DNA of 64,000 nt from positions 19,344,001 to 19,408,000 of the forward strand of contig OZ024749.1 of assembly GCA_964016885.1 (NCBI GenBank). The letters are read 5' to 3'. A program made the translations under genes and the position numbers. The notes under the pieces are model-generated. The model saw only the letters and a list, made by a program, of their open reading frames with translations, ran no database searches and had not been told where the DNA came from. This stretch comes from Eledone cirrhosa (taxonomy: Eukaryota). Of this stretch, positions 161 to 64,000 are shown piece by piece (position 1 is the stretch's first letter; each line of letters opens with the position of its first letter).

Positions 161-242
161 GCTGCTGCTGCTCTCTGTATTGGTGTTGGGGGAATGTCTG
201 ACCCACCCGACATACAAGGATTGTCTCACTTCCTGGAGCATA
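161..242 (+). CDS. NRDC: Internal coding exon of a nardilysin-like M16A (insulinase family) zinc metallopeptidase, containing the HXXEH motif
   Basis: Preceded by a T-rich tract and acceptor (TTGTTGTTTGTAG, ending at 160) and followed by the donor GTAAGT (243-248). It is 82 nt and translates [27 protein letters not shown] plus 1 nt (A). This matches the nardilysin pattern SAAALCVGVGSFxDPxDLPGLAHFLEHM with the inverted zincin HFLEH. Confidence 0.92.
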
Positions 243-480: not shown

Positions 481-594
481 AGATTTAGGCCTTGAACTTG
501 GCAATAGAGGTTTTCATTGTAGAGAGGGAACTCGTCTGATAATGTGTGCTGTTTCTAGTAGCCCGATCTACTGTAGCTCATATTATTATTATTA

Positions 595-749
595 TTCAAA
601 TCCCGCCGAGGTTAACTTTGCCTTTCATCCTTACGGGGATCGATAAAATATAGTACCAGTCACGCACTGGGGTCGATTTAAACGACTTTCCCCTCTCCCC
701 CGAAAATTGCCGGCCTTGTGCTTATAGTTGAAATCATCATTATTATCAT
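595..749 (+). mobile_element. tRNA-derived SINE, copy 2 (5'-truncated at the B box)
   Basis: Begins TTCAAATCCCGCCGAGGTTAACTTTGCCTTTCATCC, nearly identical to 357-392. It follows a (TAT)n tract and ends in an ATC/ATT triplet tail. Confidence 0.8.
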
Positions 750-906
750 TGGCAGTATCGGTAGAGGGTCAGACGCCTTGCCATTCTGAGTTCAAATCCC
801 GCCGAGGTTAACTTTGCCTTTCATCCTTACGGGGTCGATAAAATAAAGTACCAGTAATACACTGGGATAATTGCTGGCCTTGTGCCAAAAGTAGAAGCAA
901 TTATTA
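750..906 (+). mobile_element. tRNA-derived SINE, copy 3 (with internal deletions)
   Basis: A-box TGGCAGTATCGGTAGAGGGTC is identical to copy 1, followed by B-box GAGTTCAAATCC and the same body. It lacks the pyrimidine-rich segment and ends GGCCTTGTGCCAAAAGTAGAAGCAATTATT. Confidence 0.8.
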
Positions 907-2594: not shown

Positions 2595-2695
2595 TGGTGT
2601 TTATGGGAAGTAAGAAATATCCTAAGGAGAATGAATTTGATGATTTCCTGGCAAGACACGGTGGCTACTCCAATGCCTGGACTGACTATGAAGCT
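2595..2695 (+). CDS. NRDC: Next internal coding exon of the nardilysin-like M16A metallopeptidase
   Basis: Acceptor TTTCCATTTCAG ends at 2594 and donor GTATGT is at 2696-2701. The exon is 101 nt: TG completes the A|TG Met codon with the previous exon (phase 1), then [33 protein letters not shown]. This matches nardilysin MVFMGSxKYPxENxFDxFLxxHGGSxNAxTD better than IDE (MLFLGTKKYP..EYSQFL). Confidence 0.92.
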
Positions 2696-2796
2696 GTATG
2701 TAGATTTAGATATTGAGTTTTGTTTTTATAGATTTTATTATGACCTTGTTGGGCCACCATACAATGGTCTTCTACCAACACTGTCTATACACTGTT

Positions 2797-3139
2797 GTGA
2801 AGGTGCATGGCTTAGTGGTTAGAGTGTCTGACTTACAGTTGTAAGGTTCGATTCCTGGACCACGCTTTGCCTTGTGTCCTTGAGCAAGACACTTTATTTC
2901 ATGTTGCTCCAGTTCACTCAGCTGTAGAAATGAGTTGCAACGTCACTGGTGCCAAGCTGTACTGGCCATAACCTTTCTGTTGGACAACATCAGTGGCATG
3001 GAGAGGGGATACTGGTATGTATGGCTGACTACTGGTCTTCCTCAAACAATCTTGTCTGGACTTGTGCCTTGGAGGGAATCTTTCTAGGTGCAAATCCTAT
3101 GGTCATTTGTGACCGAAGAAGGTCTTTACTCTTGCCATT
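2797..3139 (+). mobile_element. tRNA-derived SINE (second family), apparently full length with an 11-bp TSD
   Basis: A-box TGGCTTAGTGG (2808-2818) and B-box GGTTCGATTCC (2845-2855). The downstream motif GTGTCCTTGAGCAAGACACTT...CACTCAGCTGTAGAAATGAGT is reminiscent of conserved SINE central domains. It is flanked by the direct repeat TATACACTGTT (2786-2796 and 3140-3150). Confidence 0.8.
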
Positions 3140-6100
3140 TATACACTGTTAATGACTGTATTTACACTATCTATACACTGTTAATGACTGTATTTACACT
3201 ATCTATACACTGTTAATAACTGTATTTACACTATCTATACACTGTTAATAACTGTATTTACACTATCTATACATTGTTAATGACTGTATTTACACTATCT
3301 ATACACTGTTAATAACTGTATTTACACTATCTATACACTGTTAATGACTGTATTTACACTATCTATACACTGTTAATGACTGTATTTACACTATCTATAC
3401 ATTGTTAATGACTGTATTTACACTATCTATAGACTGTTAATGACTGTATTTACACTATCTATACACTGTTAATGACTGTATTTACACTATCTATACACTG
3501 TTAATAACTGTATTTACACTATCTATACACTGTTAATGACTGTATTAACATTATCTATACACTGTTAATGACTGTATTTACACTATCTACATTGTTAATG
3601 ACTGTATTTACACTATCTATACACTGTTAATGACTGTATTTACACTATCTATATACCGTTAATGACTGTATTTACACTATCTATACACTGTTAATGACTG
3701 TATTTACACTATCTATACACTGTTAATGACTGTATTTACACTATCTATACACTGTTAATGACTGTATTTACACTATCTATACACTGTTAATGACTGTATT
3801 TACACTATCTATACATTGTTAATGACTGTATTTACACTATCTATACACTGTTAATAACTGTATTTACACTATCTATACACTGTTAATAACTGTATTTACA
3901 CTATCTATACACTGTTAATAACTGTAATACATCGTTAATGACTGTATTTACACTATCTATACACTGTTAATGACTGTATTTACACTATCTATACACTGTT
4001 AATAACTGTATTTACGCTATCTATACACTGTTAATAACTGTATTTACACTATCTATACACTGTTAATAACTGTATTTACACTATCTATACATTGTTAATG
4101 ACTGTATTTACACTATCTATACACTGTTAATAACTGTATTTACACTATCTATACACTGTTAATAACTGTATTTACACTATCTATACACTGTTAATGACTA
4201 TTTACACTATCTATACACTGTTAATAACTGTATTTACACTATCTATACATTGTTAATGACTGTATTTACACTATCTATACACTGTTAATAACTGTATTTA
4301 CACTATCTATACACTGTTAATGACTGTATTTACACTATCTATACATTGTTAATGACTGTATTTACACTATCTATACACTGTTAATAACTGTATTTACACT
4401 ATCTATACACTGTTAATGACTGTATTTACACTATCTATACACTGTTAATAACTGTATTTACACTATCTATACACTGTTGATAACTGTATTTACACTATCT
4501 ATACACTGTTAATAACTGTATTTACACTATCTATACATTGTTAATGACTGTATTTACACTATCTATACACTGTTAATAACTGTATTTACACTATCTATAC
4601 ACTGTTAATAACTGTATTTACACTATCTATACACTGTTAATAACTGTATTTACACTATCTATACACTGTTAATAACTGTATTTACACTATCTATACATTG
4701 TTAATGACTGTATTTACACTATCTATACACTGTTAATAACTGTATTTACACTATCTATACACTGTTAATGACTGTATTTACACTATCTATACACTGTTAA
4801 TAACTGTATTTACACTATCTATACACTGTTAATGCCTGTATTTACACTATCTATACACTGTTAATGACTGTATTTACACTATCTATACACTGTTAATAAC
4901 TGTATTTACACTATCTATACATTGTTAATGACTGTATTTACACTATCTTTACACTGTTAATGACTGTATTTACACTATCTATACACTGTTAATGACTGTA
5001 TTTACACTATCTATACACTGTTAATGACTGTATTTACACTATCTATTCATTGTTAATGACTGTATTTACACTATCTATACATTGTTAATGACTGTATTTA
5101 CACTATCTATACACTGTTAATGACTGTATTTACACTATCTATACACTGTTAATGACTGTATTTACACTATCTATACACTGTTAATGACTGTATTTACATT
5201 ATCTATACACTGTTAATGACTGTATTTACACTATCTATACACTGTTAAGGACTGTATTTACACTATCTATACATTGTTAATGACTGTATTTACACTATCT
5301 ATACATTGTTAATGACTGTATTTACACTATCTATACACTGTTAATGACTGTATTTACACTATCTATACACTGTTAATGACTGTATTTACACTATCTATAC
5401 ATTGTTAATGACTGTATTTACACTATCTATACACTGTTAATGACTGTATTTACACTATCTATGCACTGTTAATGACTATTTACACTATCTATACACTGTT
5501 AATGACTGTATTTACACTATCTATACACCGTTAATGACTGTATTTACACTATCTATACACTGTTAATAACTGTATTTACACTATCTATACACTGTTAATG
5601 ACTGTATTTACACCATCTATACATTGTTAATGACTGTATTTACACTATCTATACACCGTTAATGACTGTATTTACATTATCTATACACTGTTAATGACTG
5701 TATTTGCACTATCTATACACCGTTAATGACTGTATTTACATTATCTATACACTGTTAATGACTGTATTTACACTATCTATACACTGTTAATGACTGTATT
5801 TACACTATCTATACACTGTTAATGACTGTATTTACACTATCTATACACCGTTAATGACTGTATTTACACTATCTATACACCGTTAATAACTGTATTTACA
5901 CTATCTATACACTGTTAATGACTGTATTTACACTATCTATACACTGTTAATGACTGTATTTACACTATCTATACACTGTTAATAACTGTATTTACACTGT
6001 TAATAACTGTATTTACACTGTTAATAACTGTATTTACACTATCTATACACTGTTAATGACTGTATTTACACTATCTATACACTGTTTATGACTGTATTTA

Positions 6101-9100
6101 CACTATCTATACACTGTTAATGACTGTATTTACACTATCTATACATTGTTAATGACTGTATTTACACTATCTATACATTGTTAATGACTGTATTTACACT
6201 ATCTATACACTGTTAATGACTGTATTTACACTATCTATACACTGTTAACGACTGTATTTACACTATCTATAGACTGTTAATGACTGTATTTACACTATCT
6301 ATACACTGTTAATGACTGTATTTACACTATCTATACGTTGTTAATGACTGTATTTACACTATCTATAGACTGTTAATGATTGTATTTACACTATCTATAC
6401 ACTGTTAATGACTGTATTTACACTATCTATACATTGTTAATGACTGTATTTACACTATCTATACACTGTTAATAACTGTATTTACACTATCTATACACTG
6501 TTAATGACTGTATTTACACTATCTATACACTGTTAATGACTGTATTTACACTATCTATACACTGTTAATAACTGTATTTACACTATCTATACACTGTTAA
6601 TAACTGTATTTACACTATCTATACACTGTTAATAACTGTATTTACACTATCTATACACTGTTGATAACTGTATTTACACTATCTATACACTGTTAATAAC
6701 TGTATTTACACTATCTATACATTTTTAAAACTGTATTTACACTATCTATACACTGTTAATAACTGTATTTACACTATCTATACACTGTTAATGACTGTAT
6801 TTACACTATCTATACACTGTTAATAACTGTATTTACACTATCTATACACTGTTAATAACTGTATTTACACTATCTATACACTGTTAATAACTGTATTTAC
6901 ACTATCTATACACTGTTAATAACTGTATTTACACTATCTATACACTGTTAATAACTGTATTTACACTATCTATACATTGTTAGTGACTGTATTTACACTA
7001 TCTATACACTGTTAATAACTGTATTTACACTATCTATACACTGTTAATGACTGTATTTACACTATCTATACACTGTTAATAACTGTATTTACACTATCTA
7101 TACACTGTTAATGCCTGTATTTACACTATCTATACACTGTTAATGACTGTATTTACACTATCTATACACTGTTAATAACTGTATTTACACTATCTATACA
7201 TTGTTAATGACTGTATTTACACTATCTTTACACTGTTAATGACTGTATTTACACTATCTATACACTGTTAATGACTGTATTTACACTATCTATACACTGT
7301 TAATGACTGTATTTACACTATCTATTCATTGTTAATGACTGTATTTACACTATCTATACATTGTTAATGACTGTATTTACACTATCTATACACTGTTAAT
7401 GACTGTATTTACACTATCTATACACTGTTAATGACTGTATTTACACTATCTATACACTGTTAATGACTGTATTTACATTATCTATACACTGTTAATGACT
7501 GTATTTACACTATCTATACACTGTTAAGGACTGTATTTACACTATCTATACATTGTTAATGACTGTATTTACACTATCTATACATTGTTAATGACTGTAT
7601 TTACACTATCTATACATTGTTAATGACTGTATTTACACTATCTATACACTGTTAATGACTGTATTTACACTATCTATACACCGTTAATGACTGTATTTAC
7701 ACTATCTATACACTGTTAATAACTGTATTTACACTATCTATACACTGTTAATGACTGTATTTACACCATCTATACATTGTTAATGACTGTATTTACACTA
7801 TCTATACACCGTTAATGACTGTATTTACATTATCTATACACTGTTAATGACTGTATTTGCACTATCTATACACCGTTAATGACTGTATTTACATTATCTA
7901 TACACTGTTAATGACTGTATTTACACTATCTATACACTGTTAATGACTGTATTTACACTATCTATACACTGTTAATGACTGTATTTACACTATCTATACA
8001 CCGTTAATGACTGTATTTACACTATCTATACACCGTTAATAACTGTATTTACACTATCTATAAACTGTTAATGACTGTATTTACACTATCTATACACTGT
8101 TAATGACTGTATTTACACTATCTATACACTGTTAATAACTGTATTTACACTGTTAATAACTGTATTTACACTGTTAATAACTGTATTTACACTATCTATA
8201 CACTGTTAATGACTGTATTTACACTATCTATACACTGTTTATGACTGTATTTACACTATCTATACACTGTTAATGACTGTATTTACACTATCTATACATT
8301 GTTAATGACTGTATTTACACTATCTATACATTGTTAATGACTGTATTTACACTATCTATACACTGTTAATGACTGTATTTACACTATCTATACACTGTTA
8401 ACGACTGTATTTACACTGTCTATAGACTGTTAATGACTGTATTTACACTATCTATACACTGTTAATGACTGTATTTACACTATCTATACATTGTTAATGA
8501 CTGTATTTACACTATCTATACACTGTTAATAACTGTATTTACACTATCTATACACTGTTAATGACTGTATTTACACTATCTATACACTGTTAATGACTGT
8601 ATTTACACTATCTATACACTGTTAATAACTGTATTTACACTATCTATACACTGTTAATAACTGTATTTACACTATCTATACACTGTTAATAACTGTATTT
8701 ACACTATCTATACACTGTTAATAACTGTATTTACACTATCTATACATTGTTAATGACTGTATTTACACTATCTATACACTGTTAATAACTGTATTTACAC
8801 TATCTATACACTGTTAATGACTGTATTTACACTATCTATACACTGTTAATAACTGTATTTACACTATCTATACACTGTTAATAACTGTATTTACACTATC
8901 TATACACTGTTAATAACTGTATTTACACTATCTATACACTGTTAATAACTGTATTTACACTATCTATACACTGTTAATAACTGTATTTACACTATCTATA
9001 CATTGTTAGTGACTGTATTTACACTATCTATACACTGTTAATAACTGTATTTACACTATCTATACACTGTTAATGACTGTATTTACACTATCTATACACT

Positions 9101-12100
9101 GTTAATAACTGTATTTACACTATCTATACACTGTTAATGCCTGTATTTACACTATCTATACACTGTTAATGACTGTATTTACACTATCTATACACTGTTA
9201 ATAACTGTATTTACACTATCTATACATTGTTAATGACTGTATTTACACTATCTTTACACTGTTAATGACTGTATTTACACTATCTATACACTGTTAATAA
9301 CTGTATTTACACTATCTATACATTGTTAGTGACTGTATTTACACTATCTATACACTGTTAAAAACTGTATTTACACTATCTATACACTGTTAATAACTGT
9401 ATTTACACTATCTATACACTGTTAATAACTGTATTTACACTATCTATACATTGTTAGTGACTGTATTTACACTATCTATACACTGTTAATAACTGTATTT
9501 ACACTATCTATACACTGTTAATGACTGTATTTACACTATCTATACACTGTTAATAACTGTATTTACACTATCTATACACTGTTAATGCCTGTATTTACAC
9601 TATCTATACACTGTTAATGACTGTATTTACACTATCTATACACTGTTAATAACTGTATTTACACTATCTATACATTGTTAATGACTGTATTTACACTATC
9701 TTTACACTGTTAATGACTGTATTTACACTATCTATACACTGTTAATGACTGTATTTACACTATCTATACACTGTTAATGACTGTATTTACACTATCTATT
9801 CATTGTTAATGACTGTATTTACACTATCTATACATTGTTAATGACTGTATTTACACTATCTATACACTGTTAATGACTGTATTTACACTATCTATACACT
9901 GTTAATGACTGTATTTACACTATCTATACACTGTTAATGACTGTATTTACATTATCTATACACTGTTAATGACTGTATTTACACTATCTATACACTGTTA
10001 AGGACTGTATTTACACTATCTATACATTGTTAATGACTGTATTTACACTATCTATACATTGTTAATGACTGTATTTACACTATCTATACATTGTTAATGA
10101 CTGTATTTACACTATCTATACACTGTTAATGACTGTATTTACACTATCTATACACCGTTAATGACTGTATTTACACTATCTATACACTGTTAATAACTGT
10201 ATTTACACTATCTATACACTGTTAATGACTGTATTTACACCATCTATACATTGTTAATGACTGTATTTACACTATCTATACACCGTTAATGACTGTATTT
10301 ACATTATCTATACACTGTTAATGACTGTATTTGCACTATCTATACACCGTTAATGACTGTATTTACATTATCTATACACTGTTAATGACTGTATTTACAC
10401 TATCTATACACTGTTAATGACTGTATTTACACTATCTATACACTGTTAATGACTGTATTTACACTATCTATACACCGTTAATGACTGTATTTACACTATC
10501 TATACACCGTTAATAACTGTATTTACACTATCTATAAACTGTTAATGACTGTATTTACACTATCTATACACTGTTAATGACTGTATTTACACTATCTATA
10601 CACTGTTAATAACTGTATTTACACTGTTAATAACTGTATTTACACTGTTAATAACTGTATTTACACTATCTATACACTGTTAATGACTGTATTTACACTA
10701 TCTATACACTGTTTATGACTGTATTTACACTATCTATACACTGTTAATGACTGTATTTACACTATCTATACATTGTTAATGACTGTATTTACACTATCTA
10801 TACATTGTTAATGACTGTATTTACACTATCTATACACTGTTAATGACTGTATTTACACTATCTATACACTGTTAACGACTGTATTTACACTATCTATAGA
10901 CTGTTAATGACTGTATTTACACTATCTATACACTGTTAATGACTGTATTTACACTATCTATACATTGTTAATGACTGTATTTACACTATCTATACACTGT
11001 TAATAACTGTATTTACACTATCTATACACTGTTAATGACTGTATTTACACTATCTATACACTGTTAATGACTGTATTTACACTATCTATACACTGTTAAT
11101 AACTGTATTTACACTATCTATACACTGTTAATAACTGTATTTACACTATCTATACACTGTTAATAACTGTATTTACACTATCTATACACTGTTAATAACT
11201 GTATTTACACTATCTATACATTGTTAATGACTGTATTTACACTATCTATACACTGTTAATAACTGTATTTACACTATCTATACACTGTTAATGACTGTAT
11301 TTACACTATCTATACACTGTTAATAACTGTATTTACACTATCTATACACTGTTAATAACTGTATTTACACTATCTATACACTGTTAATAACTGTATTTAC
11401 GCTATCTATACACTGTTAATAACTGTATTTACACTATCTATACACTGTTAATAACTGTATTTACACTATCTATACATTGTTAGTGACTGTATTTACACTA
11501 TCTATACACTGTTAATAACTGTATTTACACTATCTATACACTGTTAATGACTGTATTTACACTATCTATACACTGTTAATAACTGTATTTACACTATCTA
11601 TACACTGTTAATGCCTGTATTTACACTATCTATACACTGTTAATGACTGTATTTACACTATCTATACACTGTTAATAACTGTATTTACACTATCTATACA
11701 TTGTTAATGACTGTATTTACACTATCTTTACACTGTTAATGACTGTATTTACACTATCTATACATTGTTAATGACTGTATTTACACTATCTATACATTGT
11801 TAATGACTGTATTTACACTATCTATACACTGTTAATGACTGTATTTACACTATCTATACACTGTTAATGACTGTATTTACACTATCTATACATTGTTAAT
11901 GACTGTATTTACACTATCTATACACTGTTAATGACTGTATTTACACTATCTATACACTGTTAATGACTGTATTTACACTATCTATACATTGTTAATGACT
12001 GTATTTACACTATCTATACACTGTTAATGACTGTATTTACACTATCTATACACTGTTAATGACTGTATTTACGCTATCTATACACTGTTAATGACTGTAT

Positions 12101-15100
12101 TTACACTATCTATACACTGTTAATGACTGTATTTACACTATCTATACACTGTTAATAACTGTATTTACACTATCTATACACTGTTAATAACTGTATTTAC
12201 ACTATCTATACACTGTTAATGACTGTATTTACACTATCTATACACTGTTAATGACTGTATTTACACTATCTATACACCGTTAATGACTGTATTTACATTA
12301 TCTATACACTGTTAATGACTCTATTTACACTATCTATACACTGTTAATAACTGTATTTACACTATCTATACACTGTTAATAACTGTATTTACACTATCTA
12401 TACACTGTTAATGACTGTATTTACACTATCTATACACTGTTAATGACGTTATTTACACTATCTATACACCGTTAATGACTGTATTTACATTATCGATACA
12501 CTGTTAATGACTCTATTTACACTATCTATACACCGTTAATGACTGTATTTACATTATCTATACACTGTTAATGACTGTATTTACACTATCTATACACTGT
12601 TAATGACTGTATTTACACTATCTATACACCGTTAATGACTGTATTTACACTATCTATACACTGTTACTGACTGTATTTACACTATCTATACACTGTTAAT
12701 AACTGTATTTACACTATCTATACACTGTTATTGACTGTATTTACACTATCTATACACTGTTAATAACTGTATTTACACTATCCATACACTGTTAATAACT
12801 GTATTTACACTATCTATACACTGTTAATAACTGTATTTACACTATCTATACATTGTTAATGACTGTATTTACACTATCTATACACTGTTATTGACTGTAT
12901 TTACACTATCTATACACTGTTAATAACTGTATTTACACTATCTATACATTGTTAATAACTGTATTTACACTATCTATACACTGTTAATGACTGTATTTAC
13001 ACTATCTATACACTGTTAATGACTGTATTTACACTATCTATACACTGTTAATAACTGTATTTACACTATCTATACATTGTTAATAACTGTATTTACACTA
13101 TCTATACATTGTTAATGACTGTATTTACACTATCTATACACTGTTAATGACTGTATTTACACTATCTATACACTGTTAATGACTGTATTTACACTATCTA
13201 TACACTGTTAATGACTGTATTTACACTATCTATACACTGTTAATGACTGTATTTATACTATCTATACACTGTTAATAACTGTATTTACACTATCTATACA
13301 CTGTTAATAACTGTATTTACACTATCTATACACTGTTAATGACTGTATTTACACTATCTATACACTGTTAATGACTGTATTTACACTATCTATACACCGT
13401 TAATGACTGTATTTACATTATCTATACACTGTTAATGACTCTATTTACACTATCTATACACCGTTAATGACTGTATTTACATTATCTATACACTGTTAAT
13501 GACTGTATTTACACTATCTATACACTGCTAATGACTGTATTTACACTATCTATACACTGTTAATAACTGTATTTACACTGTTAATAACTGTATTTACACT
13601 ATCTATACACTGTTAATGACTGTATTTACACTATCTATACATTGTTAATGACTGTATTTACACTATCTATACATTGTTAATGACTGTATTTACACTATCT
13701 ATACATTGTTAATGACTGTATTTACACTATCTGTACACTGTTAATGACTGTATTTACACTATCTATACACTGTTAATGACTGTATTTACACTATCTATAC
13801 ACTGTTAATGACTGTATTTACACTATCTATACACTGTTAATGACTGTATTTACACTATCTATACACTGTTAATGACTGTATTTACACTATCTATACACCG
13901 TTAATGACTGTATTTACACTATCTATACACTGTTAATGACTGTATTAACATTATCTATACACTGTTAATGACTATTTACACTATCTATACACCGTTAATG
14001 ACTGTATTTACACTATCTATACACCGTTAATGACTGTATTTACACTATCTATACACTGTTAATGACTGTATTTACACTATCTATACACCGTTAATGACTG
14101 TATTTACACTATCTATACACTGTTAATGACTGTATTTACACTATCTATACACTGTTAATGACTGTATTTACGCTATCTATACACTGTTAATGACTGTATT
14201 TACACTATCTATACACTGTTAATGACTGTATTTATACTATCTATACACTGTTAATAACTGTATTTACACTATCTATACACTGTTAATAACTGTATTTACA
14301 CTATCTATACACTGTTAATGACTGTATTTACACTATCTATACACTGTTAATGACGTTATTTACACTATCTATACACCGTTAATGACTGTATTTACATTAT
14401 CGATACACTGTTAATGACTCTATTTACACTATCTATACACCGTTAATGACTGTATTTACATTATCTATACACTGTTAATGACTGTATTTACACTATCTAT
14501 ACACTGTTAATGACTGTATTTACACTATCTATACACCGTTAATGACTGTATTTACACTATCTATACACTGTTACTGACTGTATTTACACTATCTATACAC
14601 TGTTAATAACTGTATTTACACTATCTATACACTGTTATTGACTGTATTTACACTATCTATACACTGTTAATAACTGTATTTACACTATCCATACACTGTT
14701 AATAACTGTATTTACACTATCTATACACTGTTAATAACTGTATTTACACTATCTATACATTGTTAATGACTGTATTTACACTATCTATACACTGTTATTG
14801 ACTGTATTTACACTATCTATACACTGTTAATAACTGTATTTACACTATCTATACATTGTTAATAACTGTATTTACACTATCTATACACTGTTAATGACTG
14901 TATTTACACTATCTATACACTGTTAATGACTGTATTTACACTATCTATACACTGTTAATAACTGTATTTACACTATCTATACATTGTTAATAACTGTATT
15001 TACACTATCTATACATTGTTAATGACTGTATTTACACTATCTATACACTGTTAATGACTGTATTTACACTATCTATACACTGTTAATGACTGTATTTGCA

Positions 15101-18100
15101 CTATCTATACACTGTTAATGACTGTATTTACACTATCTATACATTGTTAATGACTGTATTTACACTATCTATACACTGTTAATGACTGTATTTACACTAT
15201 CTATACACTGTTAATGACTGTATTTACGCTATCTATACACTGTTAATGACTGTATTTACACTATCTATACACTGTTAATGACTGTATTTATACTATCTAT
15301 ACACTGTTAATAACTGTATTTACACTATCTATACACTGTTAATAACTGTATTTACACTATCTATACACTGTTAATGACTGTATTTACACTATCTATACAC
15401 TGTTAATGACTGTATTTACACTATCTATACACCGTTAATGACTGTATTTACATTATCTATACACTGTTAATGACTCTATTTACACTATCTATACACCGTT
15501 AATGACTGTATTTACATTATCTATACACTGTTAATGACTGTATTTACACTATCTATACACTGTTACTGACTGTATTTACACTATCTATACACTGTTAATA
15601 ACTGTATTTACACTATCTATACACTGTTATTGACTGTATTTACACTATCTATACACTGTTAATAACTGTATTTACACTATCCATACACTGTTAATAACTG
15701 TATTTACACTATCTATACACTGTTAATAACTGTATTTACACTATCTATACATTGTTAATGACTGTATTTACACTATCTATACACTGTTATTGACTGTATT
15801 TACACTATCTATACACTGTTAATAACTGTATTTACACTATCTATACATTGTTAATAACTGTATTTACACTATCTATACACTGTTAATGACTGTATTTACA
15901 CTATCTATACACTGTTAATGACTGTATTTACACTATCTATACACTGTTAATAACTGTATTTACACTACCTATACATTGTTAATAACTGTATTTACACTAT
16001 CTATACATTGTTAATGACTGTATTTACACTATCTATACACTGTTAATGACTGTATTTACACTATCTATACACTGTTAATAACTGTATTTACACTATCTAT
16101 ACACTGTTAATGACTGTATTTACACTATCTATACACTGTTAATGACTGTATTTACACTATCTATACACCGTTAATGACTGTATTTACATTATCTATACAC
16201 TGTTAATGACTGTATTTACACTATCTATACACTGCTAATGACTGTATTTACACTATCTATACACTGTTAATAACTGTATTTACACTGTTAATAACTGTAT
16301 TTACACTATCTATACACTGTTAATGACTGTATTTACACTATCTATACATTGTTAATGACTGTATTTACACTATCTATACATTGTTAATGACTGTATTTAC
16401 ACTATCTATACATTGTTAATGACTGTATTTACACTATCTGTACACTGTTAATGACTGTATTTACACTATCTATACACTGTTAATGACTGTATTTACACTA
16501 TCTATACACTGTTAATGACTGTATTTACACTATCTATACACTGTTAATGACTGTATTTACACTATCTATACACTGTTAATGACTGTATTTACACTATCTA
16601 TACACCGTTAATGACTGTATTTACACTATCTATACACTGTTAATGACTGTATTAACATTATCTATACACTGTTAATGACTATTTACACTATCTATACACC
16701 GTTAATGACTGTATTTACACTATCTATACACCGTTAATGACTGTATTTACACTATCTATACACTGTTAATGACTGTATTTACACTATCTATACACCGTTA
16801 ATGACTGTATTTACACTATCTATACACTGTTAATGACTGTATTTACACTATCTATACACTGTTAATGACTGTATTTACGCTATCTATACACTGTTAATGA
16901 CTGTATTTACACTATCTATACACTGTTAATGACTGTATTTATACTATCTATACACTGTTAATAACTGTATTTACACTATCTATACACTGTTAATAACTGT
17001 ATTTACACTATCTATACACTGTTAATGACTGTATTTACACTATCTATACACTGTTAATGACTGTATTTACACTATCTATACACCGTTAATGACTGTATTT
17101 ACATTATCTATACACTGTTAATGACTATTTACACTATCTATACACCGTTAATGACTGTATTTACATTATCTATACACTGTTAATGACTGTATTTACACTA
17201 TCTATACACTGTTAATGACTGTATTTACACTATCTATACACCGTTAATGACTGTATTTACACTATCTATACACTGTTACTGACTGTATTTACACTATCTA
17301 TACACTGTTAATAACTGTATTTACACTATCTATACACTGTTATTGACTGTATTTACACTATCTATACACTGTTAATAACTGTATTTACACTATCCATACA
17401 CTGTTAATAACTGTATTTACACTATCTATACACTGTTAATAACTGTATTTACACTATCTATACATTGTTAATGACTGTATTTACACTATCTATACACTGT
17501 TATTGACTGTATTTACACTATCTATACACTGTTAATAACTGTATTTACACTATCTATACATTGTTAATAACTGTATTTACACTATCTATACACTGTTAAT
17601 GACTGTATTTACACTATCTATACACTGTTAATGACTGTATTTACACTATCTATACACTGTTAATAACTGTATTTACACTACCTATACATTGTTAATAACT
17701 GTATTTACACTATCTATACATTGTTAATGACTGTATTTACACTATCTATACACTGTTAATGACTGTATTTACACTATCTATACACTGTTAATAACTGTAT
17801 TTACACTATCTATACACTGTTAATAACTGTATTTACACTATCTATACACTGTTAATAACTGTATTTACACTATCTATACACTGTTAATGACTGTATTTAC
17901 ACTATCTATACATTGTTAATGACTGTATTTACACTATCTATACATTGTTAATGACTGTATTTACACTATCTATACATTGTTAATGACTGTATTTACACTA
18001 TCTATGCACTGTTAATGACTGGATTTACACTATCTATACACTGTTAATGACTGTATTTACACTATCTATACATTGTTAATGACTGTATTTACACTATCTA

Positions 18101-51100: not shown

Positions 51101-54100
51101 TATTTACACTATCTATACACTGTTAATAACTGTATTTACACTATCTATACACTGTTAATGACTGTATTTACACTATCTATACATTGTTAATGACTGTATT
51201 TACACTATCTATACATTGTTAATGACTGTATTTACACTATCTATACATTGTTAATGACTGTATTTACACTATCTATGCACTGTTAATGACTGGATTTACA
51301 CTATCTATGCACTGTTAATGACTGTATTTACACTATCTATACATTGTTAATGACTGTATTTACACTATCTATACACTGTTAATCACTGTATTTACACTAT
51401 CTATACACTGTTAATGACTGTATTTACACTATCTATACACTGTTAATCACTCTATTTACACTATCTATACACTGTTAATGACTGTATTTACACTATCTAT
51501 ACATTGTTAATGACTGTATTTACACTATCTATACATTGTTAATGACTGTATTTACACTATCTATACACTGTTAATGACTGTATTTACACTATCTATACAC
51601 TGTTAATGACTGTATTTACACTATCTATACATTGTTAATAACTGTATTTACACTATCTATACACTGTTAATAACTGTATTTACACTATCTATACATTGTT
51701 AATGACTGTATTTACACTATCTATACACTGTTAATGACTGTATTTACACTATCTATACACCGTTAATGACTGTATTTACATTATCTATACACTGTTAATG
51801 ACTCTATTTACACTATCTATACACTGTTAATAACTGTATTTACACTATCTATACACTGTTAATAACTGTATTTACACTATCTATACACTGTTAATGACTG
51901 TATTTACACTATCTATACACTGTTAATGACTGTATTTACGCTATCTATACACCGTTAATGACTGTATTTACATTATCGATACACTGTTAATGACTCTATT
52001 TACACTATCTATACACCGTTAATGACTGTATTTACATTATCTATACACTGTTAATGACTGTATTTACACTATCTATACACTGTTAATGACTGTATTTACA
52101 CTATCTATACACCGTTAATGACTGTATTTACACTATCTATACACTGTTACTGACTGTATTTACACTATCTATACACTGATAATAACTGTATTTACACTAT
52201 CTATACACTGTTATTGACTGTATTTACACTATCTATACACTGTTAATAACTGTATTTACACTATCCATACACTGTTAATAACTGTATTTACACTATCTAT
52301 ACACTGTTAATAACTGTATTTACACTATCTATACATTGTTAATGACTGTATTTACACTATCTATACACTGTTATTGACTGTATTTACACTATCTATACAC
52401 TGTTAATAACTGTATTTACACTATCTATACATTGTTAATAACTGTATTTACACTATCTATACACTGTTAATGACTGTATTTACACTATCTATACACTGTT
52501 AATGACTGTATTTACACTATCTATACACTGTTAATAACTGTATTTACACTATCTATACATTGTTAATAACTGTATTTACACTATCTATACATTGTTAATG
52601 ACTGTATTTACACTATCTATACACTGTTAATGACTGTATTTACACTATCTATACACTGTTAATAACTGTATTTACACTATCTATACACTGCTAATGACTG
52701 TATTTACACTATCTATACACTGTTAATGACTGTATTTACACTATCTATACACCGTTAATGACTGTATTTACATTATCTATACACTGTTAATGACTGTATT
52801 TACACTATCTATACACTGTTAATGACTGTATTTACACTATCTATACACTGTTAATAACTGTATTTACACTGTTAATAACTGTATTTACACTATCTATACA
52901 CTGTTAATGACTGTATTTACACTATCTATACATTGTTAATGACTGTATTTACACTATCTATACATTGTTAATGACTGTATTTACACTATCTATACATTGT
53001 TAATGACTGTATTTACACTATACACTGTTAATGACTGTATTTACACTATCTATACATTGTTAATGACTGTATTTACACTATCTATACACTGTTAATGACT
53101 GCATTTACACTATCTATACACTGTTAATGACTGTATTTACACTATCTAAACACTGTTAATGACTGTATTTACACTATCTATACACTGTTAATGACTGTAT
53201 TTACACTATCTATACACTGTTAATGACTGTATTTACACTATCTATACACCGTTAATGACTGTATTTATGCTATCTATACACTGTTAATGACTGTATTAAC
53301 ATTATCTATACACTGTTAATGACTGTATTTACACTATCTATACACTGTTAATGACTGTATTTACACTATCTATACACTGTTAATGACTGTATTTACACTA
53401 TCTATACATTGTTAATGACTGTATTTACACTATCTATACACTGTTAATGACTGTATTTACACTATCTATACACTGTTAATGACTGCATTTACACTATCTA
53501 TACACTGTTAATGACTGTATTTACACTATCTAAACACTGTTAATGACTGTATTTACACTATCTATACACTGTTAATGACTGTATTTACACTATCTATACA
53601 CTGTTAATGACTGTATTTACACTATCTATACACCGTTAATGACTGTATTTATGCTATCTATACACTGTTAATGACTGTATTAACATTATCTATACACTGT
53701 TAATGACTGTATTTACACTATCTATACACTGTTAATGACTGTATTTACACTATCTATACACTGTTAATGACTGTATTTACACTATCTATACATTGTTAAT
53801 GACTGTATTTACACTATCTATACACTGTTAATGACTGTATTTACACTATCTATACACTGTTAATGACTGTATTTACACTATCTATACACTGTTAATGACT
53901 GTATTTACACTATCTATACACTGTTTATGACTGTATTTACACTATCTATACACTGTTAATGACTGTATTTACACTATCTATACACTGTTAATGACTGTAT
54001 TTACACTATCTATACACCGTTAATGACTGTATTTAAACTATCTATACACTGTTAATGACTGTATTAACATTATCTATACACTGTTAATGACTATTTACAC

Positions 54101-57100
54101 TATCTATACACCGTTAATGACTGTATTTACACTATCTATACACCGTTAATGACTGTATTTACACTATCTATACACTGTTAATGACTGTATTTACACTATC
54201 TATACACCGTTAATGACTGTATTTACACTATCTATACACTGTTAATGACTGTATTTACACTATCTATACACTGTTAATAACTGTATTTACATTATCGATA
54301 CACTGTTAATGACTCTATTTACACTATCTATACACCGTTAATGACTGTATTTACATTATCTATACACTGTTAATAACTGTATTTACACTATCTATACACT
54401 GTTAATAACTGTATTTACACTATCTATACACTGTTAATAACTGCATTTACACTATCTATTCATTGTTAATGACTGTATTTACACTATCTATACACTGTTA
54501 ATAACTGTATTTACACTATCTATGCACTGTTAATGACTGTATTTACACTATCTATACACTGTTAATAACTGTATTTACACTATCTATACACTGTTAATAA
54601 CTGTATTTACACTATCTATACACTGTTAATAACTGTATTTACACTATCTATACACTGTTAATGACTGTATTTACACTATCTATACATTGTTAATGACTGT
54701 ATTTACACTATCTATACATTGTTAATGACTGTATTTACACTATCTATACATTGTTAATGACTGTATTTACACTATCTATGCACTGTTAATGACTGGATTT
54801 ACACTATCTATACACTGTTAATGACTGTATTTACACTATCTATACATTGTTAATGACTGTATTTACACTATCTATACACTGTTAATCACTGTATTTACAC
54901 TATCTATACACTGTTAATGACTGTATTTACACTATCTATACACTGTTAATCACTCTATTTACACTATCTATACACTGTTAATGACTGTATTTACACTATC
55001 TATACATTGTTAATGACTGTATTTACACTATCTATACATTGTTAATGACTGTATTTACACTATCTATACACTGTTAATGACTGTATTTACACTATCTATA
55101 CACTGTTAATGACTGTATTTACACTATCTATACATTGTTAATAACTGTATTTACACTATCTATACACTGTTAATAACTGTATTTACACTATCTATACATT
55201 GTTAATGACTGTATTTACACTATCTATACACTGTTAATGACTGTATTTACACTATCTATACACCGTTAATGACTGTATTTACATTATCTATACACTGTTA
55301 ATGACTCTATTTACACTATCTATACACTGTTAATAACTGTATTTACACTATCTATACACTGTTAATAACTGTATTTACACTATCTATACACTGTTAATGA
55401 CTGTATTTACACTATCTATACACTGTTAATGACTGTATTTACACTATCTATACACCGTTAATGACTGTATTTACATTATCGATACACTGTTAATGACTCT
55501 ATTTACACTATCTATACACCGTTAATGACTGTATTTACATTATCTATACACTGTTAATGACTGTATTTACACTATCTATACACTGTTAATGACTGTATTT
55601 ACACTATCTATACACCGTTAATGACTGTATTTACACTATCTATACACTGTTACTGACTGTATTTACACTATCTATACACTGTTAATAACTGTATTTACAC
55701 TATCTATACGCTGTTATTGACTGTATTTACACTATCTATACACTGTTAATAACTGTATTTACACTATCCATACACTGTTAATAACTGTATTTACACTATC
55801 TATACACTGTTAATAACTGTATTTACACTATCTATACATTGTTAATGACTGTATTTACACTATCTATACACTGTTATTGACTGTATTTACACTATCTATA
55901 CACTGTTAATAACTGTATTTACACTATCTATACATTGTTAATAACTGTATTTACACTATCTATACACTGTTAATGACTGTATTTACACTATCTATACACT
56001 GTTAATGACTGTATTTACACTATCTATACACTGTTAATAACTGTATTTACACTATCTATACATTGTTAATAACTGTATTTACACTATCTATACATTGTTA
56101 ATGACTGTATTTACACTATCTATACACTGTTAATGACTGTATTTACACTATCTATACACTGTTAATAACTGTATTTACACTATCTATACACTGTTAATGA
56201 CTGTATTTACACTATCTATACACTGTTAATGACTGTATTTACACTATCTATACACCGTTAATGACTGTATTTACATTATCTATACACTGTTAATGACTGT
56301 ATTTACACTATCTATACACTGTTAATGACTGTATTTACACTATCTATACACTGTTAATAACTGTATTTACACTGTTAATAACTGTATTTACACTATCTAT
56401 ACACTGTTAATGACTGTATTTACACTATCTATACATTGTTAATGACTGTATTTACACTATCTATACATTGTTAATGACTGTATTTACACTATCTATACAT
56501 TGTTAATGACTGTATTTACACTATACACTGTTAATGACTGTATTTACACTATCTATACATTGTTAATGACTGTATTTACACTATCTATACACTGTTAATG
56601 ACTGCATTTACACTATCTATACACTGTTAATGACTGTATTTACACTATCTAAACACTGTTAATGACTGTATTTACACTATCTATACACTGTTAATGACTG
56701 TATTTACACTATCTATACACTGTTAATGACTGTATTTACACTATCTATACACCGTTAATGACTGTATTTATGCTATCTATACACTGTTAATGACTGTATT
56801 AACATTATCTATACACTGTTAATGACTGTATTTACACTATCTATACACTGTTAATGACTGTATTTACACTATCTATACACTGTTAATGACTGTATTTACA
56901 CTATCTATACATTGTTAATGACTGTATTTACACTATCTATACACTGTTAATGACTGTATTTACACTATCTATACACTGTTAATGACTGTATTTACACTAT
57001 CTATACACTGTTAATGACTGTATTTACACTATCTATACACTGTTTATGACTGTATTTACACTATCTATACACTGTTAATGACTGTATTTACACTATCTAT

Positions 57101-60100
57101 ACACTGTTAATGACTGTATTTACACTATCTATACACCGTTAATGACTGTATTTACACTATCTATACACTGTTAATGACTGTATTAACATTATCTATACAC
57201 TGTTAATGACTATTTACACTATCTATACACCGTTAATGACTGTATTTACACTATCTATACACCGTTAATGACTGTATTTACACTATCTATACACTGTTAA
57301 TGACTGTATTTACACTATCTATACACCGTTAATGACTGTATTTACACTATCTATACACTGTTAATGACTGTATTTACACTATCTATACACTGTTAATAAC
57401 TGTATTTACACTATCTATACACTGTTAATAACTGTATTTACACTATCTATACACTGTTAATAACTGTATTTACACTATCTATACACTGTTAATAACTGTA
57501 TTTACACTATCTATACATTGTTAATGACTGTATTTACACTATCTATACACTGTTAATAACTGTATTTACACTATCTATACACTGTTAATAACTGTATTTA
57601 CACTATCTATACACTGTTAATAACTGTATTTACACTATCTATACACTGTTAATGACTGTATTTACACTATCTATACATTGTTAATGACTGTATTTACACT
57701 ATCTATACATTGTTAATGACTGTATTTACACTATCTATACATTGTTAATGACTGTATTTACACTATCTATGCACTGTTAATGACTGGATTTACACTATCT
57801 ATACACTGTTAATGACTGTATTTACACTATCTATACATTGTTAATGACTGTATTTACACTATCTATACACTGTTAATCACTGTATTTACACTATCTATAC
57901 ACTGTTAATGACTGTATTTACACTATCTATACATTGTTAATGACTGTATTTACACTATCTATACACTGTTAATGACTGTATTTACACTATCTATACACTG
58001 TTAATGACTGTATTTACACTATCTATACATTGTTAATGACTGTATTTACACTATCTATACACTGTTAATGACTGTATTTACACTATCTATACACTGTTAA
58101 TGACTGTATTTACACTATCTATACACCGTTAATGACTGTATTTACATTATCTATACACTGTTAATGACTCTATTTACACTATCTATACACCGTTAATGAC
58201 TGTATTTACATTATCTATACACTGTTAATGACTGTATTTACACTATCTATACACTGTTAATGACTGTATTTACACTATCTATACACCGTTAATGACTGTA
58301 TTTACACTATCTATACACTGTTACTGACTGTATTTACACTATCTATACACTGTTAATAACTGTATTTACACTATCTATACACTGTTATTGACTGTATTTA
58401 CACTATCTATACACTGTTAATAACTGTATTTACACTATCCATACACTGTTAATAACTGTATTTACACTATCTATACACTGTTAATAACTGTATTTACACT
58501 ATCTATACATTGTTAATAACTGTATTTACACTATCTATACACTGTTAATGACTGTATTTACACTATCTATACACTGTTAATGACTGTATTTACACTATCT
58601 ATACACTGTTAATAACTGTATTTACACTATCTATACATTGTTAATAACTGTATTTACACTATCTATACATTGTTAATGACTGTATTTACACTATCTATAC
58701 ACTGTTAATGACTGTATTTACACTATCTATACACTGTTAATAACTGTATTTACACTATCTATACACTGTTAATGACTGTATTTACACTATCTATACACTG
58801 TTAATGACTGTATTTACACTATCTATACACCGTTAATGACTATTTACATTATCTATACACTGTTAATGACTGTATTTACACTATCTATACACTGTTAATG
58901 ACTGTATTTACACTATCTATACACTGTTAATAACTGTATTTACACTGTTAATAACTGTATTTACACTATCTATACACTGTTAATGACTGTATTTACACTA
59001 TCTATACATTGTTAATGACTGTATTTACACTATCTATACATTGTTAATGACTGTATTTACACTATCTATACATTGTTAATGACTGTATTTACACTATCTA
59101 TACACTGTTAATGACTGTATTTACACTATCTATACATTGTTAATGACTGTATTTACACTATCTATACATTGTTAATGACTGTATTTACACTATCTATACA
59201 CTGTTAATGACTGCATTTACACTATCTATACACTGTTAATGACTGTATTTACACTATCTATACACTGTTAATGACTGTATTTACACTATCTATACACTGT
59301 TAATGACTGTATTTACACTATCTATACACTGTTAATGACTGTATTTACACTATCTATACACCGTTAATGACTGTATTTATGCTATCTATACACTGTTAAT
59401 GACTGTATTAACATTATCTATACACTGTTAATGACTGTATTTACACTATCTATACACTGTTAATGACTGTATTTACACTATCTATACACTGTTAATGACT
59501 GTATTTACACTATCTATACATTGTTAATGACTGTATTTACACTATCTATACACTGTTAATGACTGTATTTACACTATCTATACACTGTTAATGACTGTAT
59601 TTACACTATCTATACACTGTTAATGACTGTATTTACACTATCTATACACTGTTTATGACTGTATTTACACTATCTATACACTGTTAATGACTGTATTTAC
59701 ACTATCTATACACCGTTAATGACTGTATTTACACTATCTATACACTGTTAATGACTGTATTAACATTATCTATACACTGTTAATGACTATTTACACTATC
59801 TATACACCGTTAATGACTGTATTTACACTATCTATACACCGTTAATGACTGTATTTACACTATCTATACACTGTTAATGACTGTATTTACACTATCTATA
59901 CACCGTTAATGACTGTATTTACACTATCTATACACTGTTAATGACTGTATTTACACTATCTATACACTGTTAATGACTGTACTTACACTATCTATACACT
60001 GTTAATGACTGTATTTACACTATCTATACACTGTTAATGACTGTATTTACACTATCTATACACTGTTAATGACTGTATTTACACTATCTATACACTGTTA

Positions 60101-63100
60101 ATAACTGTATTTACACTATCTATACATTGTTAATGACTGTATTTACACTAACTATACACTGTTAATGACTGTTTTTACACTATCTATACACTGTAAATAA
60201 CTGTATTTACATTATCTATACCTTATTAATAACTGTATTTACACTATCTATACACTGTTAATAACTGTATTTACACTATCTATACACTGTTAATAACTGT
60301 ATTTACACTATCTATACACTTAATGACTGTATTAACATTATCTATACACTGTTAATGACTGTATTTACACTATCTATACATTGTTAATGACTGTATTTAC
60401 ACTATCTATACACTGTTAATGACTGTATTTACACTATCTATACACTGTTAATAACTGTATTTACACTATCTATACACTGTTAATGACTGTATTTACACTA
60501 TCTATACACTGTTAATGACTGTATTTACACTATCTATACACTGTTAATGACTGTATTTACGCTATCTATACATTGTTAATGACTGTATTTACACTATCTA
60601 TACACTGTTAATGACTGTATTTACACTATCTATACACTGTTAATAACTGTATTTACACTATCTATACACTGTTAATGACTGTATTTACACTATCTATACA
60701 CTGTTTATAACTGTATTTACACTATCTATACACTGTTAATAACTGTATTTACACTATCTATACACTGTTAATAACTGTATTTACACTATCTATACATTGT
60801 TAATGACTGTATTTACATTATTTATACACTGTTAATGACTGTATTTACACTATCTATACACTGTTAAGACTGTATTTACACTATCTATACACCGTTAATG
60901 ACTGTATTTACACTATCTATACACTGTTAATAACTGTATTTACACTATCTATACACTGTTAATGACTGTATTTACACTATCTATACACCGTTAATGACTG
61001 TATTTACACTATCTATACACTGTTAATAACTGTATTTACACTATCTATACACCGTTAATGACTGTATTTACATTATCTATACACTGTTAATGACTGTATT
61101 TACACTATCTATACACCGTTAATGACTGTATTTACATTATCTATACACTGTTAATGACTGTATTTACACTATCTATACACTGTTAATGACTGTATTTACA
61201 CTATCTATACACCGTTAATGACTGTATTTACACTATCTATACACTGTTAATCACTGTATTTACACTATCTATACACTGTTAATGACTGTATTTACACTAT
61301 CTATGCACTGTTAATGACTGGATTTACACTATCTATACACTGTTAATGACTGTATTTACACTATCTATACACCGTTAATGACTGTATTTACACTATCTAT
61401 ACACTGTTAATCACTGTATTTACACTATCTATACACTGTTAATGACTGTATTTACACTATCTATACACTGTTAATAACTGTATTTACACTATCTATACAC
61501 TGTTAATGACTGTATTTACACTATCTATACACTGTTAATGACTGTATTTACACTATCTATACACTGTTAATGACTGTATTTACACTATCTATTCATTGTT
61601 AATGACTGTATTTACACTATCTATACACTGTTAATGACTGTATTTACACTATCTATACACTGTTAATAACTGTATTTACACTATCTATACACTGTTAATG
61701 ACTGTATTTACACTATCTATACACTGTTTATAACTGTATTTACACTATCTATACACTGTTAATAACTGTATTTACACTATCTATACACTGTTAATAACTG
61801 TATTTACACTATCTATACATTGTTAATGACTGTATTTACACTATCTATACACTGTTAATAACTGTATTTACACTATCTATACACTGTTAATGACTGTATT
61901 TACACTATCTATACACTGTTAATAACTGTATTTACACTATCTATACACTGTTAATAACTGTATTTACACTATCTATACACTTAATGACTGTATTAACATT
62001 ATCTATACACTGTTAATGACTGTATTTACACTATCTATACATTGTTAATGACTGTATTTACACTATCTATACACTGTTAATGACTGTATTTACACTATCT
62101 ATACACTGTTAATAACTGTATTTACACTATCTATACACTGTTAATGACTGTATTTACACTATCTATACACTGTTAATGACTGTATTTACACTATCTATAC
62201 ACTGTTAATGACTGTATTTACGCTATCTATACATTGTTAATGACTGTATTTACACTATCTATACACTGTTAATGACTGTATTTACACTATCTATACACTG
62301 TTAATAACTGTATTTACACTATCTATACACTGTTAATGACTGTATTTACACTATCTATACACTGTTTATAACTGTATTTACACTATCTATACACTGTTAA
62401 TAACTGTATTTACACTATCTATACACTGTTAATAACTGTATTTACACTATCTATACATTGTTAATGACTGTATTTACATTATTTATACACTGTTAATGAC
62501 TGTATTTACACTATCTATACACTGTTAAGACTGTATTTACACTATCTATACACCGTTAATGACTGTATTTACACTATCTATACACTGTTAATAACTGTAT
62601 TTACACTATCTATACACTGTTAATGACTGTATTTACACTATCTATACACCGTTAATGACTGTATTTACACTATCTATACACTGTTAATAACTGTATTTAC
62701 ACTATCTATACACCGTTAATGACTGTATTTACATTATCTATACACTGTTAATGACTGTATTTACACTATCTATACACCGTTAATGACTGTATTTACATTA
62801 TCTATACACTGTTAATGACTGTATTTACACTATCTATACACTGTTAATGACTGTATTTACACTATCTATACACCGTTAATGACTGTATTTACACTATCTA
62901 TACACTGTTAATCACTGTATTTACACTATCTATACACTGTTAATGACTGTATTTACACTATCTATGCACTGTTAATGACTGGATTTACACTATCTATACA
63001 CTGTTAATGACTGTATTTACACTATCTATACACCGTTAATGACTGTATTTACACTATCTATACACTGTTAATCACTGTATTTACACTATCTATACACTGT

Positions 63101-64000
63101 TAATGACTGTATTTACACTATCTATACACTGTTAATAACTGTATTTACACTATCTATACACTGTTAATGACTGTATTTACACTATCTATACACTGTTAAT
63201 GACTGTATTTACACTATCTATACACTGTTAATGACTGTATTTACACTATCTATTCATTGTTAATGACTGTATTTACACTATCTATACACTGTTAATGACT
63301 GTATTTACACTATCTATACACTGTTAATAACTGTATTTACACTATCTATACACTGTTAATGACTGTATTTACACTATCTATACACTGTTTATAACTGTAT
63401 TTACACTATCTATACACTGTTAATAACTGTATTTACACTATCTATACACTGTTAATAACTGTATTTACACTATCTATACATTGTTAATGACTGTATTTAC
63501 ACTATCTATACACTGTTAATAACTGTATTTACACTATCTATACACTGTTAATGACTGTATTTACACTATCTATACACTGTTAATAACTGTATTTACACTA
63601 TCTATACACTGTTAATAACTGTATTTACACTATCTATACACTGTTAATAACTGTATTTACACTATCTATACACTGTTAATAACTGTATTTACACTATCTA
63701 TACACTGTTAATAACTGTATTTACACTATCTATACACTGTTAATAACTGTATTTACACTATCTATACATTGTTAATGACTGTATTTACACTATCTATACA
63801 CTGTTAATAACTGTATTTACACTATCTATACACTGTTAATGACTGTATTTACACTATCTATACACTGTTAATAACTGTATTTACACTATCTATACACTGT
63901 TAATAACTGTATTTACACTATCTATACACTGTTAATAACTGTATTTACACTATCTATACACTGTTAATGACTGTATTTACACTATCTATACACTGTTAAT
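3140..64000. repeat. 32-bp satellite array, consensus ATACACTGTTAATGACTGTATTTACACTATCT, about 1,900 head-to-tail monomers, open at the right edge
   Basis: Direct reading shows a period of 32 (3141, 3173, ...) and a consensus GC of 9/32. Common variants are AATGAC/AATAAC and CACTG/CATTG/CACCG, with recurrent 11-, 4- and 2-bp deletions. I saw a single orientation and no inserted elements. Confidence 0.99.

Follow-up and report, generated by a model that had tools for sequence, protein, structure and literature searches.

A 32-bp satellite that is private to one locus fills, in the assembly, a 419-kb intron of a gene in Eledone cirrhosa that, by its sequence, is an intact nardilysin (NRDC, peptidase family M16A). 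The window analysed here is a stretch of 64,000 nucleotides, C9:19,344,001-19,408,000 on the + strand of contig OZ024749.1 (C9, 56.8 Mb of a 2.996-Gb assembly), and holds the upstream end of the intron; the surrounding sequence was examined over C9:19,244,001-19,908,000, as 60 stretches of 10 kb. The satellite likely grew from a minisatellite that already lay in the intron, is likely transcribed and removed in one splice, and is probably tolerated rather than useful. We assign this reading as a whole a probability of about 0.78.

Nardilysin and its giant intron

The features on which the argument rests are the following, in the order in which they lie along the gene.

Window 161..242, + strand: nardilysin coding exon with the zinc-binding motif HFLEH (HXXEH), ending in phase 1 (AG/GT borders, Pfam).
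Window 2595..2695, + strand: nardilysin coding exon before the giant intron, ending in phase 0 at Ala215 in Octopus vulgaris numbering (splice borders, contig from sequencing run X6).
C9:19,346,696-19,765,830 (window part 2696..64000), + strand: giant GT-AG intron, 419,135 nt (exon model).
Window 2777..2796, + strand: remnant of an old-type unit, 80 nt behind the donor (unit comparison).
Window 2797..3139, + strand: high-copy element resembling a short interspersed nuclear element (SINE), within the first unit (target-site duplication, contig depth).
C9:19,347,140-19,764,663 (window part 3140..64000), + strand: homogeneous 32-bp satellite, 417,524 bp, about 13,100 units (tandem-repeat analysis).
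Window 36696..64000, + strand: window part of a 65-kb internal repeated stretch, C9:19,380,696-19,445,693 (exact-repeat comparison).
C9:19,764,664-19,765,830, + strand: older degenerate units (1.17 kb) with two inserts resembling miniature inverted-repeat transposable elements (MITEs) (unit comparison).
C9:19,765,831-19,765,957, + strand: next exon after the giant intron, Thr216 onward, phase 0 (relative alignment, X6 contig).

An earlier note, written from the window alone, had placed an array of more than 60 kb inside an intron of a nardilysin-like gene, behind two intact exons. Both exons have canonical AG/GT borders and read in frame through HFLEH, and both of their peptides (2/2) pass the Pfam cut-off for PF00675. 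The array continues to 417.5 kb with an in-frame exon behind it, which opens with T-V-F-Y-F-N at C9:19,765,831, close to the predicted T-x-F-x-F-D/E. The third zinc ligand, also expected beyond the array, has a candidate there: a Glu 81 residues after the first His, which we take to be the ligand from its spacing, by analogy with insulin-degrading enzyme. Three of the four refuting conditions that the note had set were checked and left its proposal standing, downstream exons being present on the same scaffold and strand.

An 86-residue query led to two full-length relatives among 20 candidates, from Octopus vulgaris (P0006) and Argonauta hians (P0005), both named nardilysin, and both proteins align colinearly on the + strand either side of the array. 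A 28-exon model, its borders fitted by script to the nearest frame-keeping AG/GT, holds 1,084 open codons and then a stop. It is identical to O. vulgaris nardilysin at 879 of 1,074 aligned residues (82%) and to that of A. hians at 823 of 1,052 (78%), and it has in common with them the HFLEH motif, the acidic stretch ahead of it (here an Asp/Glu/Ser-rich exon at C9:19,338,844-19,339,045) and the downstream Glu. The PF16187 profile has four matches in the genome, each within the nardilysin gene, and an intact copy elsewhere was sought by searching each array-flanking exon against the genome, with exactly one match apiece (these genome-wide counts, like those for the satellite unit below, are lower bounds). 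In the region examined, the only run of N lies 6.6 kb past the stop codon. Nardilysin is broadly expressed in vertebrates.

The remaining 26 modelled introns measure 533-23,936 nt, with a median of 1,530 nt, which the giant intron exceeds more than 100-fold at 419,135 nt (about 349 kb if an internal duplication, discussed below, is false). The gene measures 509 kb when a probable leader exon at 19,319,304 is counted in, and 92 kb minus the array. The donor, GTATGT, stands at window 2696. The earlier note had marked its array region from this position on, which calls for a small correction: the array starts at 3140 and runs uninterrupted to the window end with period 32 and 1,909 copies, and 2696-3139 is made up of a unique stretch of 80 nt, a single old unit remnant and the SINE-like element. 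The latter has what we take to be tRNA-type A and B boxes, and the contig depth summed over it is very high in runs X2, X3 and X6. The whole array is gap-free (0 N), keeps all units on the same strand and accounts for 99.6% of the intron; the next exon starts 1,167 nt past its end. Units are on average 97.4% identical to the consensus and fall into 354 segment types; the young part has no insert above 95 bp, and 342 segments in the whole array depart from 32 bp.

Other features of the gene and its surroundings were recorded alongside. At C9:19,319,304-19,319,364 and 19,335,404-19,335,428, the probable leader exon shows an apparent 2-nt loss relative to O. vulgaris. Of three candidate acceptors, a single one, the second of two that lie 4 nt apart, puts its ATG in frame, and the alternatives would give a 22-codon upstream frame, with the protein then starting at the next Met. 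The change may affect an N-terminal extension whose role is presumably targeting. A 35-bp TA/TG-rich minisatellite with an AG-free consensus (window 1088-2462, about 33-38 copies) takes up over half of the intron that separates the exons of the window, and window 287-890 holds at least three fragments of a dispersed SINE-like repeat with a common core near 360-400, 600-640 and 790-835. A 23.9-kb intron (C9:19,802,334-19,826,269) contains long TA-rich repeats and a 919-codon + strand frame (19,809,512-19,812,268), presumably of the long interspersed nuclear element type, together with similar fragments. Upstream of the gene, at C9:19,244,001-19,265,000, units of 112 bp and 232 bp and TA runs recur about 11-14 kb apart, which suggests local tandem duplication.

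Splicing across the array and growth of the satellite

Of six sequencing runs, none of them recorded as RNA, which speaks neither way, contigs of X1, X2, X3 and X6 were compared at the flanking exons. Runs X3-X5 and X6 share organism code C and differ in sample code (S4 for X6, S3 for X3-X5); X1 gave no placed contigs and X3 none over the upstream exon, neither of which counts as absence. A contig of 3,518 nt from run X6 (depth 33.7) reproduces window 2595-2695 in its bases 604-704 and C9:19,765,831-19,765,957 in its bases 705-831, each with 0 differences, and so passes from 2695 straight into the next exon, the product that the earlier note had proposed to look for. The matches at the two exons are taken as one contig, since length and depth agree and the coordinates adjoin. 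Ahead of the downstream exon, the loose end of the contig corresponds to window 2666-2695; behind that exon, it corresponds to the following one. Past the upstream exon the contig extends for 2,814 nt, a length that fits the 2,679 nt of coding sequence remaining in the model together with a short untranslated end. Run X2, from another organism, contains a 2,041-nt contig with an identical junction and 15 differences per exon. A joint in run X3 that seemed to go back 64 is not counted, because the contig in question most likely has its first 45 bases from upstream of the compared stretch, where they fit a similar unit.

By its size, its tandem-satellite content and an exon-joined mRNA, the last through one X6 contig (101 + 127 nt), the locus qualifies as a case of satellite-driven intron gigantism. 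We infer that RNA polymerase II passes through the array on the assembled allele and that satellite-containing pre-mRNA is made.

The sense strand of the array is nearly devoid of splice signals. AG occurs 206 times (0.49/kb, vs 50/kb in the other introns of the gene) and 47,295 times in antisense; AGGT, GTAAG, GTGAG and ATTAAA each occur 0 times and AATAAA five times in sense, and GTAAGT 74 times in antisense. All six AGGT of the intron fall in the 1.6 kb of edges outside the 417.5-kb array, in which the search for recursive-splicing ratchet points (AG directly followed by GT) on the sense strand accordingly returned 0. With so few AG and no AGGT or GTRAG, cryptic exons and canonical ratchet points are nearly unavailable, and a single long splice is thus predicted. 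The sense strand can be called permissive for splicing, a description of its content and not of selection. Branch-point enrichment is not used as evidence here, the two YTNAY words of the unit being close to the composition expectation by a hand estimate.

The satellite is private to this one locus in two exact-pattern searches, which do not extend to diverged relatives: a 49-mer of the unit has 3,840 genome matches, 3,838 of them in the array, and a 20-mer has 5,765, of which 5,763 are in the array, with 0 reverse-strand matches in both cases. At most two exact matches outside the array per pattern search is not the distribution of a genome-wide centromeric satellite, whose unit would lie on many chromosomes. 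An old-type 22-mer has 10 genome matches, all inside the giant intron.

Both edges of the array preserve older units. The 11 nt before the SINE-like element (window 2786-2796) recur right after it at 3140-3150, a target-site duplication composed of unit sequence. On the acceptor side, the array gives way to about 20 degenerate units, the last partial one ending about 11 nt before the acceptor AG; among them lie two copies, in opposite orientations, of a dispersed element with 17 matches in the 664-kb region (self included), which we take to be a TTAA-flanked MITE. MITE-like inserts are confined to this old part. Because older units stand 80 nt from the donor and reach up to the acceptor, it is most likely that the satellite grew in place. 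The same anatomy points to an ancestral intron that was likely small and mostly minisatellite, with one variant later expanding in the middle.

Within the array, variant frequencies shift gradually, and the pairwise difference between units grows with distance by very little, 4.4% becoming 4.8%. Repeated unequal exchange fits the exact repeats inside the array, which in the 40 longest of 128 measure 1.5-7.8 kb and lie 4-95 kb apart; marker variants recur irregularly, mostly every 2-5 kb, and no regular higher-order repeat was found in the array, the best unit-level autocorrelation being 0.23 vs a baseline of 0.175.

A course of events can be proposed from this layout. A 32-bp stretch just upstream of the acceptor, minus the AG, would have been tandemly duplicated, as at several other exon borders of the nardilysin gene, and a SINE and two MITE-like elements would have inserted into the early, small array. 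Unequal exchange, recurring in blocks that ranged from a few kb to tens of kb and perhaps included a single step of 70 kb, would then have made one unit variant run away, with old units left behind at either edge. The array may have been tolerated because the splicing and 3'-end machinery would find next to nothing to act on in its sense strand, so that the two short exons would still be defined and paired. With no AG-GT in the array, canonical recursive splicing would be precluded and a lariat of about 350-420 kb is predicted; transcription of the gene is predicted to take about five times longer than without the array. The boldest form of the claim is that a satellite was born in a working single-copy gene, with a 32-bp piece of the branch-point region amplified about 13,000-fold, the gene made five times longer and an intron of 350-420 kb removed in one step in ordinary tissue; we hold this form tentatively, at somewhat short of even odds.

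Counterevidence and alternative explanations

Several observations weigh against the reading of a locally grown, transcribed and tolerated satellite, and the first concerns array length, which is uncertain. A second copy of the 65-kb stretch at C9:19,380,696-19,445,693 lies 70,477 bp downstream. The two differ by one 1-bp indel, being exactly identical over 59,123 bp and again over 5,859 bp beyond the indel, and the repeat may be either a very recent duplication or an assembly artefact. In the second case, the intron is real and its size overstated: a haplotype switch or a false duplication would account for the 70-kb step, and the array would measure at most about 347 kb. An exact stretch of 59 kb exceeds usual accurate long reads, and so long an identical stretch is hard to assemble. 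Long-read sequencing is described as able to fail on homogeneous satellite, in that report for units up to 8 bp (PMC12758392). Outside the duplication, however, the longest exact repeat is only 7.8 kb, so that most of the array order is unique, 86% of 5-kb windows do not repeat an earlier window, and 224 unit types recur outside the second copy; an array that is growing can also be expected to carry large duplications of recent date. An overstated size is a serious possibility, if rather less probable than a correct one; it affects the size and not the reading, with which it is compatible.

The next points concern the transcript. Neither nascent nor intronic RNA is seen, with contigs compared at the flanking exons. 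Run X6, whose kind is not on record, looks like RNA, to judge from a contig that consists of joined exons and nothing else; a processed DNA copy is an unlikely source because each flanking exon has a single genomic match. The joined contig attests a spliced product, neither its route nor its allele of origin, and is not assignable to an allele. The giant array could accordingly belong to a poorly expressed or non-expressed allele, the mRNA coming from a short-array allele or individual: the X6 sample code (S4) differs from that of X3-X5 (S3), the contigs are not phaseable, and a single haplotype is seen. We regard this as unlikely. The array has a deep history, which suggests many generations at large size and not a private event (90 of 96 possible types of single substitution are found in at least two units, with gradients and nested duplications besides), and on the assembled haplotype the coding frame is intact, with 0 differences to the contig over 228 nt.

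A joined contig is likewise no proof of a single transcript. Two gene halves might be separately transcribed and trans-spliced, or the intron might be removed by stepwise non-canonical cuts, so that no full 419-kb intron RNA would exist; trans-splicing was left open in one account of the Drosophila gene kl-3 (PMC6508621). Here, the halves are colinear, lie on one strand and carry ordinary cis splice sites, and in another account kl-3 and kl-5 are consistent with single long transcripts (PMC11207136). Such a detour is improbable.

The remaining reservations bear on how the array arose and why it persists. The direction of origin is not proven: the unit may have been copied from the acceptor region, or the array may have grown up to the acceptor. 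In the test for selection against new AG, AG-making transversions (12 types, median 12.5 copies) did not differ from others (52 types, median 14.5; p=0.25) and showed no depletion relative to the mirror class (p=0.27); the second copy of the 65-kb duplication and non-32-bp segments were excluded, and the counts are of copies, not of independent events. As many as 30% of shuffled units of the same composition lack AG, the array contains 74 YAG sites with at least 8 pyrimidines in the preceding 12 nt, and other AG-free tandem repeats in the nardilysin gene are under about 2 kb; since these stayed small, lack of AG does not explain the runaway growth here. The AG-poor pattern is compatible with a survivor filter at birth, with no ongoing selection shown by this test.

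An array kept for a function, e.g., as a transcription timer or dose limiter, an RNA scaffold, or a chromosome-specific centromere seeded in the intron, would have the size, homogeneity and layered edges that resemble functional satellite arrays, and regulatory use has been proposed for gigantic introns in work on Drosophila (PMC6508621, PMC11207136). Tolerance is strongly preferred to this: the satellite occupies one locus, the fold of one 161-nt array piece is no better than shuffles (z -0.60), the longest open frames in the array are 74 and 38 codons, the tested variant class shows no depletion, and local tandem duplication is common in the nardilysin gene. Finally, a scaffold misjoin, or a truncated duplicate gene abutting an unrelated satellite block, has no supporting point and can be set aside, given 0 N in the intron, an in-phase exon directly behind the array with one match per exon, unit remnants in unique sequence at both ends, old unit copies that flank the SINE with its 11-bp target duplication and reach the acceptor, and a run X3 contig in which old units and the downstream exon stand together, matching the assembly over 213 nt with 0 differences.

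Known giant introns and the place of this locus

Satellite-filled giant introns are already established from Drosophila. The satellite-containing giant introns of kl-3 and kl-5 are reported to be transcribed in order over about 90 hours and to require Blanks and Heph (PMC6508621, PMC11207136). Like nardilysin, these genes have small exons of a conserved protein split by a tandem-satellite intron, with mRNA made across it; they themselves are Y-linked spermatocyte genes with megabase introns of simple satellites such as AATAT and AAGAC, and form lampbrush-like loops. At the nardilysin locus, by contrast, there is one such intron, a locus-private 32-bp unit, a full assembly and a birth visible at the edges. 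The resemblance to Y-loop genes that the earlier note had drawn thus extends to the layout; the rest of it is not asserted, and we do not class the locus as a Y-loop gene.

Satellite-filled giant introns are not confined to Y genes, since Myo81F, Pzl, Mitf and DIP-lambda are non-Y genes described as having huge repeat-bearing introns, with satellite near exons (PMC4352887, PMC11207136, PMC12758392); Myo81F (over 2.5 Mb, with junction reads) and Pzl lie in autosomal heterochromatin with satellite blocks (PMC4352887, PMC12758392). The introns of these heterochromatic giants contain assembly gaps, Myo81F being spread over five scaffolds, whereas nardilysin combines 26 ordinary introns with one gap-free intron that is 99.6% a single array.

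The amphioxus "mirage" minisatellites, described in Adh3, the globins BflGb6/9, troponin C and PGBD5 (PMC3087553, PMC3902484), resemble the nardilysin repeats as tandem copies at exon borders that are unstable in length, with a homogenised middle and divergent edge units, and leave splicing undisturbed. Mirages span the exon-intron boundary and are short, with 3-6 units in BflGb6; the 32-bp array has about 13,100 units with neither exon sequence nor AG in the unit, and between its final, partial unit and the acceptor there are about 11 nt. The 32-bp unit is therefore mirage-like in position and not a member of the class. Three smaller arrays of the same gene do have the defining structure. In one, acceptor plus exon start stand in eight tandem copies of 74 bp (C9:19,768,472-19,769,061), ahead of the exon that begins at 19,769,033; each copy fuses an acceptor to a donor-like word (TAG then GTAAT), resembling a ratchet point, and the whole is a true mirage; the others are about eight tandem 58-bp donor copies (C9:19,774,326-19,774,782) and a 130-bp acceptor duplicate (C9:19,766,648-19,766,887). 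Further border repeats in the gene include 55-79-bp acceptor copies in which CAG then GT is kept in most (C9:19,826,829-19,827,389), a 48-bp AG-free unit immediately before an acceptor (C9:19,793,811-19,794,138) and, amid GTG-rich repeats in the intron that follows the post-array exon, a partial copy of that exon's 3' end (C9:19,766,040-19,766,090).

Newborn locus-specific satellites of 5.5-26 kb are reported from the Y chromosomes of the simulans clade (PMC8794474). They are likewise young, homogenised and derived from local sequence; they lie on a non-recombining Y, while the nardilysin array is 13-75 times longer and lies in a coding gene. As to cephalopods, the top 14% of genes in O. bimaculoides are stated to exceed 30 kb (PMC7222433), and 5-methylcytosine is reported to be higher in gene bodies and satellites than in transposons (PMC9476566). 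A literature search, confined to top-ranked results without supplements, returned nothing on this locus or on giant cephalopod satellite introns, and an unseen catalogue of similar cases may exist. New here are a size of this order for a complex unit at a single locus, the ordinary gene in which it sits and an origin that can be seen.

For the most part, the Drosophila introns of this kind lack a full assembly and belong to the germline or to heterochromatin, which leaves open how such introns start and whether special machinery is needed. At the nardilysin locus, the exon borders, the whole array, the old edge units and the spliced product are all in hand. With a unit private to the locus, a single 32-mer probe would report on this intron alone and make testable elongation through satellite, the chromatin of a transcribed array, lariat size and the array length of individuals; if sister species have a short intron here, they offer a natural with/without comparison. 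If the bolder claim is true, octopod cells would handle satellite gigantism without a programme of the Y-loop type, and the splice-signal content of the unit would set the growth limit of intronic repeats.

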